Positions 4,887-33,520 of a stretch of 37,037 bases of DNA are shown piece by piece. The notes beneath the pieces are model-generated. The model was given only the letters and a program-made list of their open reading frames with translations, was not told the origin of the DNA and searched no databases. A program made the translations under genes and the position numbers. Source of the DNA: a virus; the IMG/VR virus record IMGVR_UViG_3300019469_000046, positions 1 to 37,037 of that record. One strand, given 5' to 3'. Numbering within the stretch: the stretch's first letter is position 1; every line of letters starts with the position of its first letter.

Positions 4887-4926
4887 AAGCAAATATTAAG
4901 AACGTATGTACGAAAGGAGAATTGTT

Positions 4927-6033
4927 ATGTGGGTAGAAAAAAGAGCTAAGGATAACTATAAATTTGTTGAACAGTATAAGGACCCGCTTACGGACAAAAA
5001 TAAGCGTGTTTCTTTAACACTTGAGAAGAACACCGCACATACACGTAAACAGGCTCAGGCGGCGCTAGAAGTCGAAATACAGCAAAGATTACTGCACGTT
5101 AAAGATGGGACGCTTAAGCATGGTATAACTCTTAAACAACTTTCAGAAGAGTGGCTAAAAAACTATCACACTTTGGTTAAGTATCATACTTACGACAATG
5201 CCGAAAGCAGAACCCATAAAATAGTTAGTGATATTGGTAATGATGTTCTTGTCGAAAAAGTAAAGCCCATTTTGCTTGAGGATTACCTCAATTCACTAAT
5301 CTATAAACAGAACTACAAGAATTCTAGTGTAATGAAATTCAAGGGGACCCTAGGCAATATGTTTAGATATGCTTACAAGCATAACTATATTAAAACTAAT
5401 CCAATTTCAGAAGTTGAAGTTAATTATCGAACCGAGGAAATAACCGAGAAAACTTCCCAGAAGTTTCTTGATGACGATGAATTAAAACAAGTCCTTGAGT
5501 TTATGTATAAGCGTTCTCCTCATTATGGACACTTCTGCGAGTTCCTGTACCTCACTGGTATGAGATATGGCGAAGCGGCCTCACTCTACCGCTCCGATAT
5601 TGATAAACAAGATAATGGCAAAGTAGTTGCAAAAGTCAATAGTACACTCGTCAATGGTCAAAAGCAGCCTTCACCAAAAACAAGTTCAAGTCGTCGTAAC
5701 GTTACCTTAACTAAGCGTGCACAACTAATAGTGAAGCAAGAACTGGTTGATCATCCTTTCAAATCTAATTTTATTTTTGAATCAAAACAGGGCCACCCGC
5801 TTGGTAACGTAGTTCTAAATTACTGGCTGCATCAAGCAAAATCAGAATTGAAAATAGACAAAACATTATCATTGCATACCTTCCGTCATACACACATTTC
5901 TAAGTTGGCAGAATTAGGAGTACCGCTTTACTTGATTCAAAATCGTGTCGGCCATAAAGATGCAGAAACAACTAAAGAAATTTATTTACATGTAACAAAA
6001 AAAAGCCGAGCAAAAGCTCGACTCAAAACTTAA
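4927..6033 (+). CDS. int: Tyrosine recombinase / phage integrase
   Basis: AAAGGAG RBS before the ATG at 4927 (MWVEKRAKDNYKF). C-terminal catalytic pattern HTFRHTHIS...GHKDAETTKEIYLHV. Confidence 0.9.
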   Translation: MWVEKRAKDNYKFVEQYKDPLTDKNKRVSLTLEKNTAHTRKQAQAALEVEIQQRLLHVKDGTLKHGITLKQLSEEWLKNYHTLVKYHTYDNAESRTHKIVSDIGNDVLVEKVKPILLEDYLNSLIYKQNYKNSSVMKFKGTLGNMFRYAYKHNYIKTNPISEVEVNYRTEEITEKTSQKFLDDDELKQVLEFMYKRSPHYGHFCEFLYLTGMRYGEAASLYRSDIDKQDNGKVVAKVNSTLVNGQKQPSPKTSSSRRNVTLTKRAQLIVKQELVDHPFKSNFIFESKQGHPLGNVVLNYWLHQAKSELKIDKTLSLHTFRHTHISKLAELGVPLYLIQNRVGHKDAETTKEIYLHVTKKSRAKARLKT

Positions 6034-27396: not shown

Positions 27397-28176
27397 TTAT
27401 TGTTTTAGTAGTTTGACGATTAAATCATTTCTCGCATTATGAGCGTCATCTTCGTTCTTGAATGTCGATGTGTGATATTTATGCCCACAAAATGAAACTT
27501 GGCCTATAAACTTACCGCTCTTAAGCTTGGTGGTACCTCTTGTTTGTATTTTGCTTTGTATCAAACGCTTTTTGTTTCTGCACTTTTCAGAACAAACATC
27601 TTTTTTTGAATATTTGTTAACTTTGAATGATTTTCCACAAACTAAACAATGCCTAATCTCATCATCAACACCAGACTTTTTTCTAAATGCACTTTGACAA
27701 GCTGGAGAGCAAAATTTTGAGCGGCTAAATGCTGCTCTATAAACCTTTCCACAGTTTTTACAACGTTTAATGTATCGCTTCTTAATTTTCTTTCCACGAT
27801 GAGCATCAGAATTAACTTGTCTGCCCTCTAAAGTGCGATGCCACTGTGCAGCGGCTGGTCTAGCATTTTCATCAAGATTTTTTCTCCATTTAGGAAGCAT
27901 TTTGTTATAATCATGTTCTTTATGATAAGCAAGATGTTGTTTTCTAGTTAAGCATTCTAAGTTATTAATTTCATTGTTGTCCTTGTTTTCGTCAATATGA
28001 TTAATTTCCATACCATCAGGTATTTTCCCATTATGCTTTTGCCAAACATAAACATGCAGTCTCATGCGAGAAACACCTATTTTTTTAGTTGAAAGATAAT
28101 ATCCCGTTTTATCATCTTTTCTAAACTTGTAGCCATCAATAAAACCATACCCATCCTTATACGTTACTTCGCTCAC
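27397..28176 (-). mobile_element. Free-standing HNH homing endonuclease with two CxxC...C zinc-ribbon motifs and a C-terminal AP2 domain
   Basis: GAGGTGAT-TACA-GTG start at 28176. HNH core INHIDENKDNNEINNLECLTRKQHLAYH. AP2-like SGKFIGQVSFCGHKYHTSTFKNEDDAHNARN. Inserted between terL and the portal gene. Confidence 0.8.
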
Positions 28177-28229
28177 TGTAATCACCTCACATATATTGTA
28201 ACATACAATATATGGTATGATCACTGTTG

Positions 28230-29546
28230 TTAATACTTCAAACCGAAATCTCTTAGATTATCTAACACAGTATACATAAATGCATCTACTGTATGATCAT
28301 TTTCCTTAATCACTTTTGGGTGGTCAGATTGAAGTGTGTTCTCGTCCCACCGATAATCACGCTGTTGGCGAATGAAGATCTGATTTTCTGGAGTATCAAG
28401 ATAATAAACACGCCCAGTTGCCAAAAGGTTCTGGACGTTATCAATCATTTTTGTTTTCTTCGTTTTAGCTACATGATGATAGTGCTGATTGTATTGTTTG
28501 TACATTTCATGATCTAAGGCAAAATCACTCGTCGCACTATCGGCTGATTGCTTGTAGAAGTGACGTCCCCATTTGTCAATCCAACGTTGCTCGGTATCGT
28601 GTAAATCCTTAGCAATATCAGATGGGGCTTTCTTGCGAGCCTTACCAACTGGATCATAGTAGTACGTATTTAACACAATCACTCGCTTCTTACGGGTTAA
28701 AGCAACACATAGCTCTGTTGTAGCCGAAACTTGTTGTCCGCTATCCTGCCCCGTATAAAGTTCCATGATGTCGTCATCGTCCGGGAACTCTTTCAACGGG
28801 TGGAATAGTTCAGCGTTGTAAATACTATTGCCCAGCCCAATGACTTCACCTAAATACATCCATCGGTAGTAATCATAGTCATTTGCCTTAACTGTATTAA
28901 TTTCGTCCAGATAATCTTGTGACAATATGTTAGGTAATGTGACATCTTCATATGTTGAATGGTCCACATACCAGCCGGGTAATTTTTCTTGTTGTGTAAC
29001 CCATTTATTGATCCATTCGTATGGGTTCTTAGGTGGATTATAACTGTAATATGTAACAACGTGAGCGCCTGGTGGCAAACGCTTACGAGTAAATGAAGCA
29101 CGCACCATGTCTACTTCTTGCCAAGAATCAAACTCAGCCAATTCTTCAAACCAAAGATAACGTACATAACCTTGTGCTATTATCATTGATTTCAGTTTTT
29201 GTGGATCATCAACACCGCTAAAATAAAAAGCTGTCCCGTTACGTTTATCAACAATTCGATATGGTGACTTTTTGAACTCAAAAAGACTATCTACATGTAG
29301 CATGTAAATAGCCCACTTAATTTGCTCGTAAACTGACAATTCAATCGTATTAGCAACTTTACGCATGACTAACACATTAGCATGCGAGTCTTGCAAGAAG
29401 TCCATCACTAATTGGAGACTGATAACAGACGACTTAGTAGAACCACGTCCGCCCTTCAAAACTTTATTCAAAGAATGAGAGAACAACACACGGTCGAAAT
29501 GAGGGCATACCATGTCATCAGCATTAATCGTTATTTGCTTTTTCAT
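28230..29546 (-). CDS. terL: Terminase large subunit (PBSX/Terminase_3 type)
   Basis: Walker-A-like KGGRGSTKSS near the N-terminus. 438 aa. Overlaps the terS 3' end. Confidence 0.9.
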   Translation of the reverse strand: MKKQITINADDMVCPHFDRVLFSHSLNKVLKGGRGSTKSSVISLQLVMDFLQDSHANVLVMRKVANTIELSVYEQIKWAIYMLHVDSLFEFKKSPYRIVDKRNGTAFYFSGVDDPQKLKSMIIAQGYVRYLWFEELAEFDSWQEVDMVRASFTRKRLPPGAHVVTYYSYNPPKNPYEWINKWVTQQEKLPGWYVDHSTYEDVTLPNILSQDYLDEINTVKANDYDYYRWMYLGEVIGLGNSIYNAELFHPLKEFPDDDDIMELYTGQDSGQQVSATTELCVALTRKKRVIVLNTYYYDPVGKARKKAPSDIAKDLHDTEQRWIDKWGRHFYKQSADSATSDFALDHEMYKQYNQHYHHVAKTKKTKMIDNVQNLLATGRVYYLDTPENQIFIRQQRDYRWDENTLQSDHPKVIKENDHTVDAFMYTVLDNLRDFGLKY

Positions 29547-30036
29547 CGCTTACGCTCCTATCATTTCTAACTATGTTTATCGTCAAATCATCAGCAACAT
29601 TATTTGTTAATTGTTCAGCTTTACGTTCGGCAATATCAGCTTCTGCATTGGCTTTACGCAATTGAGCTTTTGTTAATTCATCAGCCAATGGATAACGCTT
29701 TAATACTTCACACCATGCTGCAAGCCTTGTCTTTAAGTTAGCTGGCACTTCAGTTTTCTCCCATTGGCCAGACAAAGGATTAATTTGTGCTTGTGTTTCA
29801 GTCGTTTCGCCACGAGCAATAGAAGTGATGGCCTGCATAGCTTCTCTAGCGTCTGCGATTTTGTGTGATTCAATCTCGCCCATTTTGGCGTTAATATAGG
29901 CTTTTACCGTAGGTTTTTGTAGGTTTTCTCTACCTGATACTTCATTGGCATATCCAGCCTTAATTGCAGATCGTGTGGCGTTGCCACTCTTAATATATTC
30001 ATCGGCAAACAATCGTTGTTTTGCTGTCAATTTCAT
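29524..30036 (-). CDS. terS: Terminase small subunit (Terminase_2 / P27-like)
   Basis: MKLTAKQRLFADEYIKSGNATRSAIKAGYA is the hallmark N-terminal HTH of this family. Confidence 0.8.
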   Translation of the reverse strand: MKLTAKQRLFADEYIKSGNATRSAIKAGYANEVSGRENLQKPTVKAYINAKMGEIESHKIADAREAMQAITSIARGETTETQAQINPLSGQWEKTEVPANLKTRLAAWCEVLKRYPLADELTKAQLRKANAEADIAERKAEQLTNNVADDLTINIVRNDRSVSDEKANND

Positions 30037-30099
30037 GGCATATCACCACACCACCTTTCTCTGTGTAAAATAAAAGACGGTAGTCATTAAGCTATCGCC

Positions 30100-30270
30100 T
30101 TAATTATTCAATCGTTTACGTATTAATTCTTGTAGTTCTTTCAAATCATCATCATCAGCCAAATCACGGATAAACTTACGAGCATAAGACCGATAACGAT
30201 ATATTCGTTGCTTATCCTTGTTCTTATCGTTCCACTTCTTATTAGCTTTTAATTGCGATTCACTAACCAT
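30100..30270 (-). CDS. Small basic/acidic protein (56 aa), hypothetical
   Basis: GAGAAGG RBS plus ATG at 30270. Translation MVSESQLKANKKWNDKNKDKQRIYRYRSYARKFIRDLADDDDLKELQELIRKRLNN. Lies just upstream of terS. Confidence 0.45.
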   Translation of the reverse strand: MVSESQLKANKKWNDKNKDKQRIYRYRSYARKFIRDLADDDDLKELQELIRKRLNN

Positions 30271-30304
30271 AATGTCGACCTTCTCACATTAATATGGTAT
30301 ACTG

Positions 30305-30578
30305 AATATGCAAAAAGCCAAGAGGCTCCATCTCTTGACTTCTTGCGTTCCGGAAATAAAGCTAACCTGCTAACCGTTATTTGCGATTAGCTTTTTTTTA
30401 TCGCATAAGCCTTAGCGAAGTTAATCGCGGCTACCGACAATAACCAAATTGTCAGTGCGATAACATGGCAGCCTCTCTTTCCGGAGTACTGTTATTTCCA
30501 TCAGTATCATCCCCTTCCCGGATTCAGGGAATCACTTCCGGAACGCTGTAGTCTTTCAGGCGTCCCTTACTTGACTAC
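30305..30578 (-). ncRNA. Candidate structured RNA of about 270 nt with its own promoter and terminator (family unknown)
   Basis: No credible ORF. An 11-bp closing helix GCGTTCCGGAA/TTCCGGAACGC spans about 190 nt. Internal hairpins: GTAGTC/GACTAC, TTCCC/GGGAA, GACAAT/ATTGTC, TGCGAT/ATCGCA. Confidence 0.45.
30311..30340 (-). terminator. Rho-independent terminator ending the structured RNA unit
   Basis: Minus sense: GTCAAGAG-ATGGAGC-CTCTTGGC followed by TTTTTG. Confidence 0.6.
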
Positions 30579-30584
30579 ATTTAT

Positions 30585-30613
30585 ATTATACATTATTAAC
30601 GTATAGATAACAA
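30585..30613 (-). promoter_or_regulatory. Sigma-70-type promoter: TTGTTA, 17-nt spacer, TATAAT
   Basis: Minus sense -35 at 30613-30608 and -10 at 30590-30585, with exact 17-nt spacing. Confidence 0.55.
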
Positions 30614-30631
30614 CAGAAAATTGAAAGAATC

Positions 30632-30772
30632 TTATTTATTTTTATGTACTTTAAAAGCTGGCAAGTGTTGACCTGTCAGCTTTTTCTTTTGCTTCATATG
30701 TCTGTCAGCTTGGCACAGCATCATGTACTCTTGCTTACTAGCCACCAAGCCGAATCGTTTAGTTTGATACAT
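30632..30772 (-). CDS. Mini-ORF (46 aa), hypothetical
   Basis: GGAGGAAAA-ATG. Translation MYQTKRFGLVASKQEYMMLCQADRHMKQKKKLTGQHLPAFKVHKNK. Confidence 0.3.
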   Translation of the reverse strand: MYQTKRFGLVASKQEYMMLCQADRHMKQKKKLTGQHLPAFKVHKNK

Positions 30773-30811
30773 TTTTCCTCCAACCAAACAAGCCAGCGCT
30801 AGGCTGACTTG

Positions 30812-30907
30812 TTATTTAATACAATTAATAATTAATGTTGAAGCAACAATAACTATCCAAAGATAAAAACAAAGAAATGATAAAAATTTAGTAAATCTTT
30901 CCATCAT
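30812..30907 (-). CDS. Mini-ORF (31 aa) encoding a hydrophobic peptide
   Basis: GGAGGAACATC-ATG. Translation MMERFTKFLSFLCFYLWIVIVASTLIINCIK has a single TM-like segment. Confidence 0.35.
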   Translation of the reverse strand: MMERFTKFLSFLCFYLWIVIVASTLIINCIK

Positions 30908-31034
30908 GATGTTCCTCCAAGAAATTAGTATGTCCTCTCAAGGAATTAAATTGTTTATCAAATTCCTGGCACTTTTCGCTTTTTATAATAAGGAGGAGCT
31001 TTTCAACTCCTTTAATTGATCTGATTGCTTACTA

Positions 31035-31126
31035 TGCTAAGAGCCGGAATCGAACCGAACTTCATGCGCAGATTTCCGTTGAATCGCATAAAATTTCCAC
31101 CTGTGCTCTCGCCAGAGAACGTTAGC
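31035..31126 (-). ncRNA. tRNA-like module 2 (non-canonical, 92 nt)
   Basis: Minus sense: GCTAACG...TCGG-TTCGATT-CCGG-CTCTTAGCA. Has a canonical T-loop sequence, a 5-bp acceptor-like GCTAA/TTAGC pairing and a 7-nt-loop hairpin GATT-CAACGGA-AATC. It does not fold as a standard cloverleaf. Confidence 0.35.
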
Positions 31127-31325
31127 GACAGAGAGTTTGTGAAAAGCAGGTGACTATCAACTCCTTTAAATTGAATTGAGTGTCATCTCTATCTCTCTGC
31201 TTGAAGCACCGTTAAACATTAAAAGAGGAGGCTTAACATCTCCTTTAATTGATTGTGCTTCAATATGGAAGGCATAAGACAAGCGAGGTGCTAGCTTCAC
31301 CTCCAAATATATATTGCCTTCCAAA

Positions 31326-31400
31326 ATGAACACCGGGAATCGAACTCCGGCAGGTATCGAATGGGATTTATTCGAACTTACGACCCTCTCACCTGTTCCA
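31326..31400 (-). ncRNA. tRNA-like module 1 (non-canonical, D-arm-less)
   Basis: Minus sense: GAACA-CAGGT...TCGAAT-AAATCCC-ATTCGA-T-ACCTG-CCGG(A)G-TTCGATT-CCCGG-TGTTC. Has a T-loop, a 7-nt-loop hairpin and a closing 5-bp stem. Confidence 0.35.
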
Positions 31401-31856
31401 AATGCTCACATAATCAGAACTAATTAACTCCCGCACCCGGTCGTAGTTTTCCGCCTACTCCTGTAACGGACGTTAGTGTTCTGAATAGTTGTAATCTTCT
31501 AGCCGTTGAGTTAGATTACGCACTCTTTTGCTGATAACAGCACGGCTACCGTGAGACTAGCAGAGTCGGCTATTTATTACTGTAAATAATCTCTTATTTA
31601 GAAAGGAGTAATTCATTTGACATTCATTTCAAGAACCAAGGTTTCACCAAAACACAAGTCTATATTGCTAGTCTCAACGTGGATTATGGAACTTGCATCC
31701 ATCTCCGGCTTGGTTACCGTTCCACACACTTAATCTAATAGAGAGATCCTGATTGCGGTATGTTGTGAGTATACGCAACTCAGTCACTCTTTATTTTGAG
31801 CAGTTTAACGACATACTCGGGTCAATGAAGTAGGGTTATCGTTATTTTTCGACAAT

Positions 31857-31865
31857 ATCATAATA
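31857..31865 (-). promoter_or_regulatory. -10-like hexamers (TATTAT/TATGAT) without a -35, just downstream of the 11-bp repeat array; candidate activator-dependent late promoter
   Basis: Minus sense ...GGGAGCACTTTTAGTGTATTATGATATTG. The -35 position is occupied by the last repeat. Confidence 0.35.
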
Positions 31866-31876
31866 CACTAAAAGTG

Positions 31877-31942
31877 CTCCCGAGATGCTCCTGATTATCT
31901 CCTATTTTACTCCCGTTTTGCTCCTGTTTTGTTCCTATTTTT
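31877..31942. repeat. Six exactly phased 11-bp repeats (plus: nCTCCyrnTTTT; minus: GGAG every 11 nt)
   Basis: Units: gCTCCcgagat gCTCCtgatta tCTCCtatttt aCTCCcgtttt gCTCCtgtttt gTTCCtatttt. The last unit overlaps the stop codon of the ArpU-like gene. Confidence 0.85.
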
Positions 31943-32459
31943 CATTTAATTCTTCGAATATCGGTAGAACATCCGGATCAACATTCATTCTAATAGCTAT
32001 CTTGTCACAGGCTTCCGCAAATTCTACACAAGCTTGTTGATCAGCCTCACTGTATGTCGTATTGCCATAATTCCTGTTCATTCTTTCTTTGACTTGCCAG
32101 ACAAACAAGCCACCAACATACCGTAAATTTAGAATATCACGACTGATTGCTTTACAAGATTTAATTGAAACAGCAACTGCCTCTTTAGCCTTAGTACACT
32201 CTGCGTAATAAGTCATCATGCTTTGCACTGCATTACCTCGACCCGATCCTCGAATACCAGTAAGATCCATGAGGGGGCTCTTAACACCATCTGATAAAGC
32301 ATTTCGACATATTTTTTGGTATGGGCTGTCATGGTTCTCATCTTCAAAGAAGAATCGGCGGACATTCCTAATGGTTGCTTTTCTATTAGTATTCGGAACT
32401 AACCCCACTGCATTTCTCCCCCTTGTGATATAATTGATTTGTTTTAATTTATATCTCAA
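31935..32459 (-). CDS. ArpU-family phage late transcriptional regulator
   Basis: 174 aa. C-terminal pattern RDILNLRYV...TTYSEADQQACVEFAEACD resembles ArpU-family (sigma-like) regulators. Last gene before the packaging region. Confidence 0.55.
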   Translation of the reverse strand: MRYKLKQINYITRGRNAVGLVPNTNRKATIRNVRRFFFEDENHDSPYQKICRNALSDGVKSPLMDLTGIRGSGRGNAVQSMMTYYAECTKAKEAVAVSIKSCKAISRDILNLRYVGGLFVWQVKERMNRNYGNTTYSEADQQACVEFAEACDKIAIRMNVDPDVLPIFEELNEK

Positions 32460-32483
32460 GGGCGCTCCACGTGAGCGCCTTTC

Positions 32484-32882
32484 TTATTCAGCTCTCATTA
32501 GTGCCAAAGCGTCAGTTATTCCCATTACTTTTCGTTTGTCGCCATAATGACGATCTCGGTAATCATGAATAATCTTATCGGCGGTGCTTCTAGCAATATC
32601 GATAATTCTCGTTATCTTTCCAGCAGATAAACCGTGCTGATACAAGAACTCTGTTTGATATTGCTTATCCGTGAGCTTGCGTTTAGCTAATTCCTGTCGA
32701 ATAGCTGCTATATCATGCTGTTCTCGTAATTTCTCTGCTAAGGCTATCCGCTTTCTGAATTTAATAATCTCTTGCAACCGCCAATCATTGGGTGATAAAA
32801 GACGGTCTATTCTGTCATTCGTACTGCCCCAGTCGTCAATATTATTAAGTGCTTCACTTAGCATTGGCGTAATGTAATCCAT
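32484..32882 (-). CDS. Putative HTH DNA-binding protein (132 aa)
   Basis: C-terminal HTH-like segment GLSAGKITRIIDIARSTADKIIHDY. Confidence 0.4.
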   Translation of the reverse strand: MDYITPMLSEALNNIDDWGSTNDRIDRLLSPNDWRLQEIIKFRKRIALAEKLREQHDIAAIRQELAKRKLTDKQYQTEFLYQHGLSAGKITRIIDIARSTADKIIHDYRDRHYGDKRKVMGITDALALMRAE

Positions 32883-32927
32883 CTTGACGCTCCCTTTTCA
32901 ATTCATTCTTCGATTTCATGAATCCTC

Positions 32928-33413
32928 CTAAAATCCGATTAGGTCGTGTACATCATAATCAATGCTCTTATACACGTTGTAATAGTCCGTGACTACCTTC
33001 CCATTGCGCTTCTTTCTGGTATGCGCTTCTTGGAAATTAGTGGTAAAGCCATACAGTTTCATCTTGAAGTCATGTTTACGTGGAACAACAACTTCAACCG
33101 GAATACCTGTTTTTAACTCAAATAGCGTAAAACGTATCTTAGTGGCCGCATCAACTGCTCGTTGATTAACACCACTCTTCACATCGTAAACGTGCTGTAT
33201 CGAGCCGTCAGCGCCATATACTACAAAGTCAGGTGTATATGTAATTCCATGTTTGTTATATCCACCCAGGGGGAACTTGGTAACTACTTTATAGCTACGA
33301 TGAATCTCGTATCGTTTACCGCTGTTCTCAATGAAACGGATAAAGAAGTCACGCTCCTTCACTGAATCAAAATTCCAGTCTTTGTAGTGTACTTTCCTGC
33401 CAAAGTGATTCAC
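32928..33413 (-). CDS. DUF1064-like protein (putative endonuclease/resolvase)
   Basis: The pattern KV.YKDWNFDSVKERDFF...ITYTPDFVVYGADGSIQHVYDVKSG matches the DUF1064 architecture. Confidence 0.55.
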   Translation of the reverse strand: MNHFGRKVHYKDWNFDSVKERDFFIRFIENSGKRYEIHRSYKVVTKFPLGGYNKHGITYTPDFVVYGADGSIQHVYDVKSGVNQRAVDAATKIRFTLFELKTGIPVEVVVPRKHDFKMKLYGFTTNFQEAHTRKKRNGKVVTDYYNVYKSIDYDVHDLIGF

Positions 33414-33520
33414 TTCTTAATCCTCTCGTGCGTGCTGTCTACTTTAATCGTCGTTACTACTCCCAGCACAAATCCAATTGCGCCAGTTACCGTGATAGCT
33501 GGTAAATCGTAAATGCCCAT
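33410..33520 (-). CDS. Mini-ORF (36 aa), single TM-like segment
   Basis: AGGAGGAAGA-ATG. Translation MGIYDLPAITVTGAIGFVLGVVTTIKVDSTHERIKK. Overlaps the ends of both neighbouring genes. Confidence 0.3.
   Translation of the reverse strand: MGIYDLPAITVTGAIGFVLGVVTTIKVDSTHERIKK

Follow-up and report, generated by a model that had tools for sequence, protein, structure and literature searches.

RNase P and RNase Z excise tRNA-like elements such as mascRNA, from the MALAT1 transcript, and the stable 'species 1 and 2' RNAs encoded in the tRNA cluster of phage T4; both enzymes, like the CCA-adding enzyme, recognise the acceptor/T-arm minihelix. Among phage RNAs, the large GOLLD and ROOL have tRNA islands as neighbours, and the GOLLD linker sometimes contains embedded tRNAs (PMC12286853; PMC5737381). 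Here we analyse a viral DNA of 37,037 nucleotides (IMG/VR record IMGVR_UViG_3300019469_000046, positions 1 to 37,037; this whole stretch is called the window, and its coordinates are used throughout), in which a sequence-only reading had noticed two degenerate tRNA-like modules that share a T-loop. Compared across related loci and read on the minus strand, the two sites are conserved tRNA-shaped RNA elements, with the top half of a tRNA retained and no capacity to decode. Their shape and position mark them as tRNA-derived, their pattern of substitution indicates structural selection, and their distribution identifies them as exchangeable cassettes of a putative long noncoding unit that separates the late activator from the packaging genes in Lactobacillus-type phages. 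The two elements are:

31326-31409, minus strand: module 1, a D-armless tRNA-shaped three-way junction (homologues in loci L474 and L511; covariance model R2)
31035-31126, minus strand: module 2, a tRNA-shaped cloverleaf (16 distinct sequences; covariance model R1)

Structure and conservation of the two modules

The 10-mer GTTCGATTCC is present exactly twice in the 37 kb, as had been noticed, both times on the minus strand (31046-31055 and 31336-31345); 0.03 copies are expected by chance, and none of 100 shuffles held at least two. ARAGORN called neither tRNA nor tmRNA genes in the whole window, and the tRNA model RF00005 (threshold 29 bits) gave no match at E ≤ 10 over 29500-33500, nor in a 411-nt search over 31010-31420. 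At the same permissive E ≤ 10, Rfam returned nothing for module 1 and, for module 2, tRNA-Sec (RF01852) at 13.4 bits (E = 8.9), below its threshold of 47 bits; otherwise, all 4227 Rfam models run on 31010-31420 gave only chance-level microRNA and snoRNA matches, and the modules had no Rfam match to Y RNA, YrlA, mascRNA, viral tRNA-like structures or tmRNA. Rejection by ARAGORN and by the Rfam tRNA model means that the sites are tRNA-like and not tRNAs, and the earlier view that neither folds as a canonical cloverleaf stands.

Both modules have a 7-bp acceptor that directly abuts a 5-bp T-stem with a UUCRANY T-loop, and both lack a tRNA anticodon arm (5 bp, 7-nt loop, U33, purine 37). A D-arm with G18/G19 may have a counterpart in module 2, which has a 4-bp stem and a 4-nt loop containing GG, and has none in module 1. 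For RNase P and RNase Z, what we checked was substrate anatomy, and both modules offer a 12-bp coaxial helix, a T-loop, no CCA and a U past the discriminator (UU past module 1, UA past module 2). The sequence-only reading was right about the T-stems, the copy in module 1 being bulged or mismatched, about the lack of an encoded CCA and of a U33-type anticodon loop, and about the 45 nt that separate the D-like stem from the T-stem in module 2.

In module 1, the acceptor GTGAGCA (31403-31409)/TGTTCAT (31326-31332) is followed by the linker UUUGGAA and by a long arm composed of CAGGU (31391-31395)/ACCUG (31351-31355), a 15-nt internal loop and the hairpin UCGAAU-AAAUCCC-AUUCGA; there is neither a D arm nor a variable region, and the T-arm (31333-31350; T-loop UUCGAUU) abuts the 3' strand of the acceptor. 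The acceptor strands first proposed, GAACA/TGTTC, are complementary, but it is the GTGAGCA/TGTTCAT stem that covaries, and module 1 therefore starts 9 nt upstream of the interval originally reported; the proposed hairpin TCGAAT/ATTCGA with its 7-nt loop held up, with a compensatory change. Module 1 is identical in four loci (L010, L369, L372 and L383) despite flanks differing by 1-9%; L474 and L511 carry divergent homologues of it between flanks that do not align with the window. Thirteen of the 14 variable columns lie in helices, and all 13 keep pairing; over 23 pairs, 98.6% of cells are paired, compared to 30-44% in slid controls. Both partners differ in four pairs, of which the T-stem contributes two and the acceptor and the distal hairpin one each, while the unpaired segments are invariant but for one loop position, with UUUGGAA, GAGAGGGUCGUAAGU and the T-loop unchanged. 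Covariance model R2 scores 104-114 bits on the homologues.

Module 2 was compared in 16 distinct sequences, comprising two lineages and recombinants, in an alignment with two gap placements adjusted, and a tRNA-like four-way junction fits all 16. Its acceptor (31120-31126/31036-31042, with discriminator A at 31035) extends the GCTAA/TTAGC pairing proposed earlier to 7 bp with one mismatch; it is paired at 6 of 7 positions in all variants except L008 and L367 (5 of 7), and in the two main lineages the mismatch is at pair 5:87 or at pair 6:86. The D-like stem (31106-31117) has UA, CG or UG at pair 11:20. The central stem CAGGU/AUCUG (31099-31103/31069-31073; CAGGU/RYCUG across variants, with UG or UA at 28:54 and 7 bp in one lineage) closes a loop of 25 nt in the window, 19-25 nt across variants, that holds CGAUUCAAC, invariant in all. 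A 9-nt variable region and the T-arm (31043-31059) complete the fold, the 5-bp T-stem having GC, UG, CG or GU at 69:83 and UA, CG or UG at 70:82. Two-sided changes are found at 11:20, 69:83 and 70:82, in the D-like and T stems. The hairpin GATT-CAACGGA-AATC, proposed as the 7-nt-loop hairpin of this module, proved to be specific to the window, relatives having AGCC or AACC. Module 2 is 95-97% identical in loci whose adjacent Rfam motif is only 74-77% identical. With covariance model R1, 20 loci reach 86-105 bits; scores of 17-30 bits are obtained for elements of a sister family, the GCTGAT type described below, two of which are in phage LR2. A pseudoknot AUGCG/CGCAU was considered for module 2 and discarded, being 84% paired with no covariation and broken in the 2b lineage; an intramolecular search for a partner of CGAUUCAAC on the RNA strand within the array found none.

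The compensatory changes in helices, together with the invariance of unpaired segments, argue for structural selection on the modules and against decaying pseudogenes. Moreover, G-U alternates with G-C or A-U in many helices, and G-U pairs form on the minus-strand transcript only, so the constraint is on RNA rather than DNA; the strand specificity of these pairs led us to reject a packaging site acting at the DNA level. An attP site was rejected as well, the integrase gene (4906-6033) being 25 kb from the modules and both strands of each acceptor stem being present. The central stem of CAGGU/ACCUG type common to both modules suggests common ancestry.

The noncoding unit and its relatives

All genes in the region lie on the minus strand. 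In this direction, the activator gene is followed by 11-nt repeats and a -10-like TATTAT, a noncoding array of ~0.9 kb, two tiny open reading frames (ORFs), a second structured segment, a 56-aa ORF and terS (Terminase_2), beyond which are terL, an HNH endonuclease gene and the portal gene. The features around the two modules are:

31935-32459, minus strand: activator gene, 174 aa, matching the phage 'transcriptional activator' family phrog_248 (E = 3.6e-20)
31877-31941, minus strand: periodic 11-nt repeats of AAAACAGGAGC type (repeat family D1; spacing 11, 11, 11), directly 3' of the activator gene
31854-31865, minus strand: putative -10-like element TATTATGATATT (TATTAT, 5/6 match), without a -35 element, predicted from sequence
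31679-31725, minus strand: module 0, a three-way junction with P1 GTGGA/TCCAC, a small hairpin and the 5-bp hairpin ATGGA-UGCAAGU-UCCAU
31491-31570, minus strand: Lacto-phage-1 RNA motif (Rfam RF03004), full-length, 89.3 bits against a threshold of 50 (E = 1.3e-15)
31267-31322, minus strand: hairpin H1 (GGAAGGCA ... UGCCUUCC; inverted repeat I5), conserved, starting 3 nt 3' of module 1
31129-31263, minus strand: hairpin blocks H2 (UUGAAGCAC ... GUGCUUCAA) and H3 (CAGAGAG ... CUCUCUG), from D2, I24 and the alignment
30994-31011, minus strand: terminator-like hairpin, AGGAGUUGAAAAGCUCCU followed by a tail rich in U and A; this is the third AAAGGAG hairpin
30613-30585, minus strand: sigma-70-like promoter TTGTTA-17-TATAAT from a promoter scan, between the array and terS

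The putative activator, an assignment made from the PHROG match only, has the same position as RinA/ArpU-type activators, which in phages of Gram-positive bacteria are encoded upstream of terS and turn on the late operon (PMC3152322). The 11-nt repeats are candidate activator boxes of a promoter that would drive the noncoding transcript, with its start probably a few nt downstream of the -10-like TATTATGATATT, an element absent from the list of a simple promoter scan; the block GTATTATGGTATTGT near this putative promoter is kept in the alignment of relatives. Relatives have repeats at the same place and with the same 11-nt period in other sequences (GGCGGTAAAAT, TGCCGGT, CTGCAG and TGGTCAA types), and it looks as if the operator boxes co-vary with the activator. 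The ~0.9 kb between the activator gene and the terS side has no credible ORF, only short unconserved ones, and an independent gene caller placed no gene in the equivalent 1.66 kb; a coding function for the region was ruled out on these two grounds.

Lacto-phage-1 is the sole Rfam family detected in the window at gathering thresholds and is on the same strand as the modules, both of which are outside its 81-nt model, 82 nt and 365 nt downstream of its match. The terminator-like hairpin at 30994-31011 may mark where the noncoding unit ends in this phage; in most relatives the unit closes instead with a strong intrinsic terminator (AAGCCUAGUC...GACUGGGCUUUUUGU). A UUAAAGGAG ... CUCCU hairpin is contained once in each of H2 and H3 and has three copies in all (31218-31253, 31139-31174 and 30985-31020), in which a Shine-Dalgarno-like strand pairs with a strand resembling the 3' end of 16S rRNA. 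All three meet AUG or UUG at zero spacing, which makes translation from them unlikely, and they may act as stabilisers or as ribosome-binding decoys.

The two tiny minus-strand ORFs between the array and the second structured RNA have good ribosome-binding sites and would encode a 31-aa hydrophobic peptide (30812-30907) and a 51-aa basic peptide (30632-30787); the DNA of the latter, 80% identical to phage LR2, is the sole BLAST match of the region. The second noncoding segment (30290-30585, minus strand), just 5' of the 56-aa ORF and terS, is very strongly structured, with a minimum free energy of -107 kcal/mol over 296 nt (z = -6.6; none of 200 shuffles as stable) and a terminator-like hairpin at its end; it has no Rfam match and has a near-identical copy in L007. 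The HNH endonuclease gene (HNH_3 and treble-clef zinc fingers; 27397-28224, minus strand) lies between terL and the portal gene, and is placed upstream of terS instead in phage LR2.

Relatives, anchored on the Lacto-phage-1 core and the module sequences in IMG/VR and metagenomes, comprised ~45 related loci and part of Lactobacillus phage LR2 (L. reuteri ATCC PTA 6475). BLAST against 50,697 cultured phage genomes yielded nothing for module 2, chance matches only for module 1 (E = 2-8) and, for the whole region, only 161 nt of phage LR2. A scan of genome contigs with the pattern GCACAGGTGG...GGTTCGANTCC picked up ordinary tRNA genes, from Acidobacteria among others, since many phage tRNA-Cys genes likewise start with that 10-mer, and the pattern AGCATNAGTAAGCAA was too loose, giving chance matches only. 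In the shared plan, the activator gene and 11-nt repeats lead to GTATTATGGTATTGT and a 5' domain; then come, in most cases, Lacto-phage-1, next a 'slot 1' of variable content and the hairpin blocks, and the array closes with one more tRNA-like element, as a rule followed by a strong intrinsic terminator. The synteny from activator to array is kept even at an activator identity of only 30-50%. The region is mosaic, with single blocks 95-100% identical between loci whose adjacent blocks are 71-80% identical, and from one relative to the next a cassette may be exchanged, missing or substituted by a real tRNA, with the remainder of the RNA retained. Occupants of the slots include true tRNA-Trp (49-56 bits) and tRNA-Gln (58 bits), marginal tRNAs at 33-34 bits ('Lys' and 'Asn-AUU', the 'Lys' element of L005 having a perfect CUUUUAA loop and a poor stem) and elements rejected by every tRNA finder; module 2 is gone altogether in L005 and L015. 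Hairpin H1 also comes after true tRNA-Gln and after GCTGAT-type cassettes. None of the cassettes or true tRNAs of these arrays has an encoded CCA.

The GCTGAT type is a sister family with a constant top half, GCTGAT(G)...GGCGGTTCGATTCCGTC(C)ATCAGCA (also given as GCTGAT(G)...GGCGGTTCGATTCCGTCCATCAGCA), without CCA and followed by UU. It is widespread (IMG/VR loci L447-L511, and L001, phage LR2, at 2130-2187) and always downstream of an activator-gene homologue. The interiors are hypervariable, 57-117 nt: some are D-armless with a covarying 6-bp hairpin and 7-nt loop (the GCTGAT-AAAG-hairpin type), others have an 8-bp stem with a 9-nt loop, 6- or 8-nt loops, or insertions with which the element reaches 117 nt. 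The base past the discriminator is U in 34 of 36 distinct cassettes, and UU follows in 28 of the 36. In other prophage contigs, where the same GCTGAT top half comes with an encoded CCA, ARAGORN calls an ordinary tRNA-Thr(UGU) gene.

Module 0, upstream of Lacto-phage-1, is a third, smaller junction, with P1 and P3 fully paired in all of its 17 distinct variants through several alternative stem sequences. In some relatives its 5-bp hairpin is a perfect tRNA T-arm (AUGGG-UUCGAGU-CCCAU), and model R2 detects these T-loop versions at 20-33 bits; its loop is UGCAAGU in the window and UUCGAGU or GGCAGAG in relatives. The GGCAG(A/G)G-type loop also stands in for the T-loop in the commonest alternative slot-1 element. 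UUCGAGU, UGCAAGU and GGCAG(A/G)G loops thus alternate at homologous hairpins and seem interchangeable, so the T-loop sequence is not obligatory at every position.

A predicted processing route and its rivals

We favour, while stopping just short of expecting it to be correct, a route in which host tRNA-processing enzymes excise the cassettes, punctuating the precursor and yielding stable tRNA-like RNAs. A noncoding transcript of ~0.9 kb would arise from an activator-dependent promoter just past the late-activator gene, ahead of terS and terL, and would carry modules 0, 1 and 2 as its tRNA-derived, non-decoding array members. Each cassette retains, as its top half, the 7-bp acceptor on the 5-bp T-stem with the UUCGAUU T-loop, and has idiosyncratic but conserved arms in place of the D/anticodon half. 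RNase P, RNase Z and the CCA-adding enzyme would recognise the acceptor/T-arm helix, with cuts 5' and 3' of each cassette as for the genuine tRNAs in the same slots of sister phages; the predicted 5' ends are at G31409 and G31126, and the 3' ends next to T31325 and A31035. Excision would punctuate the precursor and free the 5' RNA containing Lacto-phage-1 and the hairpin blocks, whose stems begin 2-4 nt past the cut, and the products would be stable tRNA-like RNAs of ~84 and ~92 nt. The unpaired UUUGGAA, GAGAGGGUCGUAAGU and AAAUCCC of module 1 and CGAUUCAAC of module 2 might then contact some partner.

In Bacillus-type bacteria, CCA-less precursors are cut by RNase Z, and downstream uracils favour the cut. 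The retained 12-bp acceptor/T-arm helix and T-loop, the absence of CCA, the U(U) trailer and the hairpin 2-4 nt further on point to excision as the most likely fate of the modules. Among the possibilities raised by the sequence-only reading, a functional tRNA mimic or processing handle fits this anatomy best.

Several points weigh against this route. The promoter and the 3' end of the transcript are themselves predictions from sequence. The comparison of module 1 comprises three distinct sequences only, and its T-stem has a bulge or mismatch in the window copy; since module 2 is represented by two lineages and recombinants, its independent compensatory events are few. Folding energies are no better than those of shuffles (z = +0.25 for module 1 and -0.76 for module 2; GCTGAT-type relatives reach about -3), and the support for the modules is therefore comparative, not thermodynamic. 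Finally, punctuation alone does not explain the strict conservation of the non-tRNA halves, nor the T-like hairpins of relatives that have GGCAG instead of UUCGA loops.

The cassettes could instead be decoys, sponges or inhibitors of factors that bind the tRNA shape, such as anticodon nucleases, other tRNA-targeting defence systems or modification enzymes, and by binding them, after processing or within the precursor, shield real tRNAs or titrate the factor in late infection, which is when they would be expressed. The constant top half and extremely variable lower half of the sister GCTGAT family make an arms-race pattern, and the near-tRNA of L005 has a perfect Lys CUUUUAA loop, tRNA-Lys(UUU) being a classic nuclease target. 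The lower halves of modules 1 and 2, however, are strongly conserved rather than diversifying and have no anticodon-like loop for a nuclease to recognise, and no defence or anti-defence gene is linked; we consider such a role unlikely.

Somewhat less credible is that the modules are architectural domains of one large folded RNA like GOLLD or ROOL, in which T-loop hairpins and elbows would mediate tertiary or quaternary docking. T-arm-like hairpins occur at three places, module 0 is a tightly covarying three-way junction, the alternation of UUCGA with UGCAA and GGCAG at homologous positions suggests a structural role for the loop, and GOLLD and ROOL are a precedent for large RNAs beside tRNA islands (PMC12286853; PMC5737381). 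Yet the cassettes close on themselves, relatives exchange, delete or replace them within an otherwise retained RNA, we found no conserved long-range pairing, and the GOLLD and ROOL models gave no match at E ≤ 10 in 29500-33500, nor any at gathering threshold when the whole window and 17 related loci were searched. The earlier idea that the modules are integral domains of the large RNA gains little from self-contained, swapped cassettes.

We doubt still more that the modules are cis-acting leader elements whose tRNA-like shape attracts a regulatory factor and so governs transcription of the late operon or the fate of its mRNA, for instance by antitermination at the array-end terminator or by providing a protected 5' end for terS mRNA. 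The array always lies between the late activator and terS, and the strong intrinsic terminator that ends it in most relatives, shortly ahead of the next genes, would call for read-through control if the late genes share its promoter. In the window, however, the separate sigma-70-like promoter at 30613-30585 means that the array may be an independent unit, and no antiterminator/terminator alternative pairing involving the modules was seen.

Plain tRNA pseudogenes drifting without function are the weakest alternative and are disfavoured: canonical and marginal tRNAs share the slots in a score gradient from 58 bits to undetectable, folding energies are unremarkable and module 2 can be lost, as in L005 and L015, but in both modules each helix that could be tested shows compensatory substitutions and the unpaired segments do not vary, module 1 is a conserved island amid the unalignable flanks of L474 and L511, and module 2 outlasts in identity the Rfam motif beside it (95-97% against 74-77%). 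Of the suggestion that these are decayed phage tRNA genes, origin and place hence survive, with relatives' tRNAs in the same slots, and decay does not; likewise, homologues do carry canonical tRNAs at these sites, but the window modules are not mutated copies of them.

Comparison with known systems

Phage tRNA islands and the large RNAs next to them (GOLLD, ROOL) are abundant yet functionally unexplained. Our comparison shows that the activator-to-terminase region of a widespread phage group is more than a site of tRNA gene turnover, with cassettes that are structurally selected, some of them no longer able to decode. A broader proposal, that Lactobacillales siphophages encode an undescribed class of non-decoding tRNA mimics, arrayed under the late activator and built of handle and effector halves, is speculative and in our judgement improbable. 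If it were true, the constant acceptor/T-arm 'handle' would ensure maturation by the host tRNA machinery, the exchangeable lower halves would be effectors that might, for instance, divert or inhibit tRNA-targeting immunity as decoys or inhibitors, or regulate the switch to packaging, and modules 1 and 2 would each represent one conserved effector type of the mimic class. Phage LR2 of L. reuteri ATCC PTA 6475, inducible and with a homologous array, provides a testable system for non-decoding tRNA mimics. The modules are also a warning for annotation: elements missed by tRNA finders, or called 'pseudo' by them, can still be conserved functional RNAs. In the searchable literature we found no description of these modules or of phage tRNA-like decoys or late-leader RNAs matching them, and no mention of Lacto-phage-1.

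The modules are alike to the genes of phage tRNA islands (RF00005) in occupying the slot of tRNA-Trp or tRNA-Gln on the same strand and in the same predicted transcription unit, and in the 7-bp acceptor, 5-bp T-stem, UUCGAUU T-loop, unencoded CCA and U-rich trailer. They differ in scoring far below tRNA thresholds and in having no 7-nt U33 anticodon loop, module 1 lacking a D arm and variable region and module 2 having a 25-nt loop at the anticodon position. Lacto-phage-1 (RF03004) shares the predicted transcript and the phage group with them, 82 nt upstream of module 1, but is an 81-nt motif of three hairpins that covers neither module.

D-armless mitochondrial tRNAs have the three-way-junction shape of module 1 and of the GCTGAT-AAAG-hairpin cassettes; they decode through a normal anticodon loop, whereas module 1 has an interrupted 5+6-bp arm with an AAAUCCC loop and is of phage origin. 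YrlA and Y-RNA-like mimics and the tRNA-like domain of tmRNA also place an acceptor-like stem and a canonical T-loop arm on a non-tRNA body, but the modules match none of them in Rfam or ARAGORN and have no Rsr/Ro or SmpB context. Like the RNA described here, GOLLD and ROOL are noncoding, long and ornate, occur in phages and prophages, Lactobacillales among their hosts, and lie beside tRNA islands or sometimes contain tRNAs (PMC12286853; PMC5737381); the window RNA, in contrast, looks like a chain of exchangeable cassettes and not one conserved global fold, and matches neither model.

Besides phage tRNA genes, GOLLD and ROOL, a near likeness is that to mascRNA and the T4 species 1 and 2 RNAs, each a non-decoding cloverleaf-like element in a longer RNA. 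There, the acceptor/T-arm is a processing substrate whose excision sets the ends of neighbouring RNAs; for modules 1 and 2 such processing is predicted. They have no sequence kinship with these elements and belong instead to several cassettes arrayed under a phage late activator.

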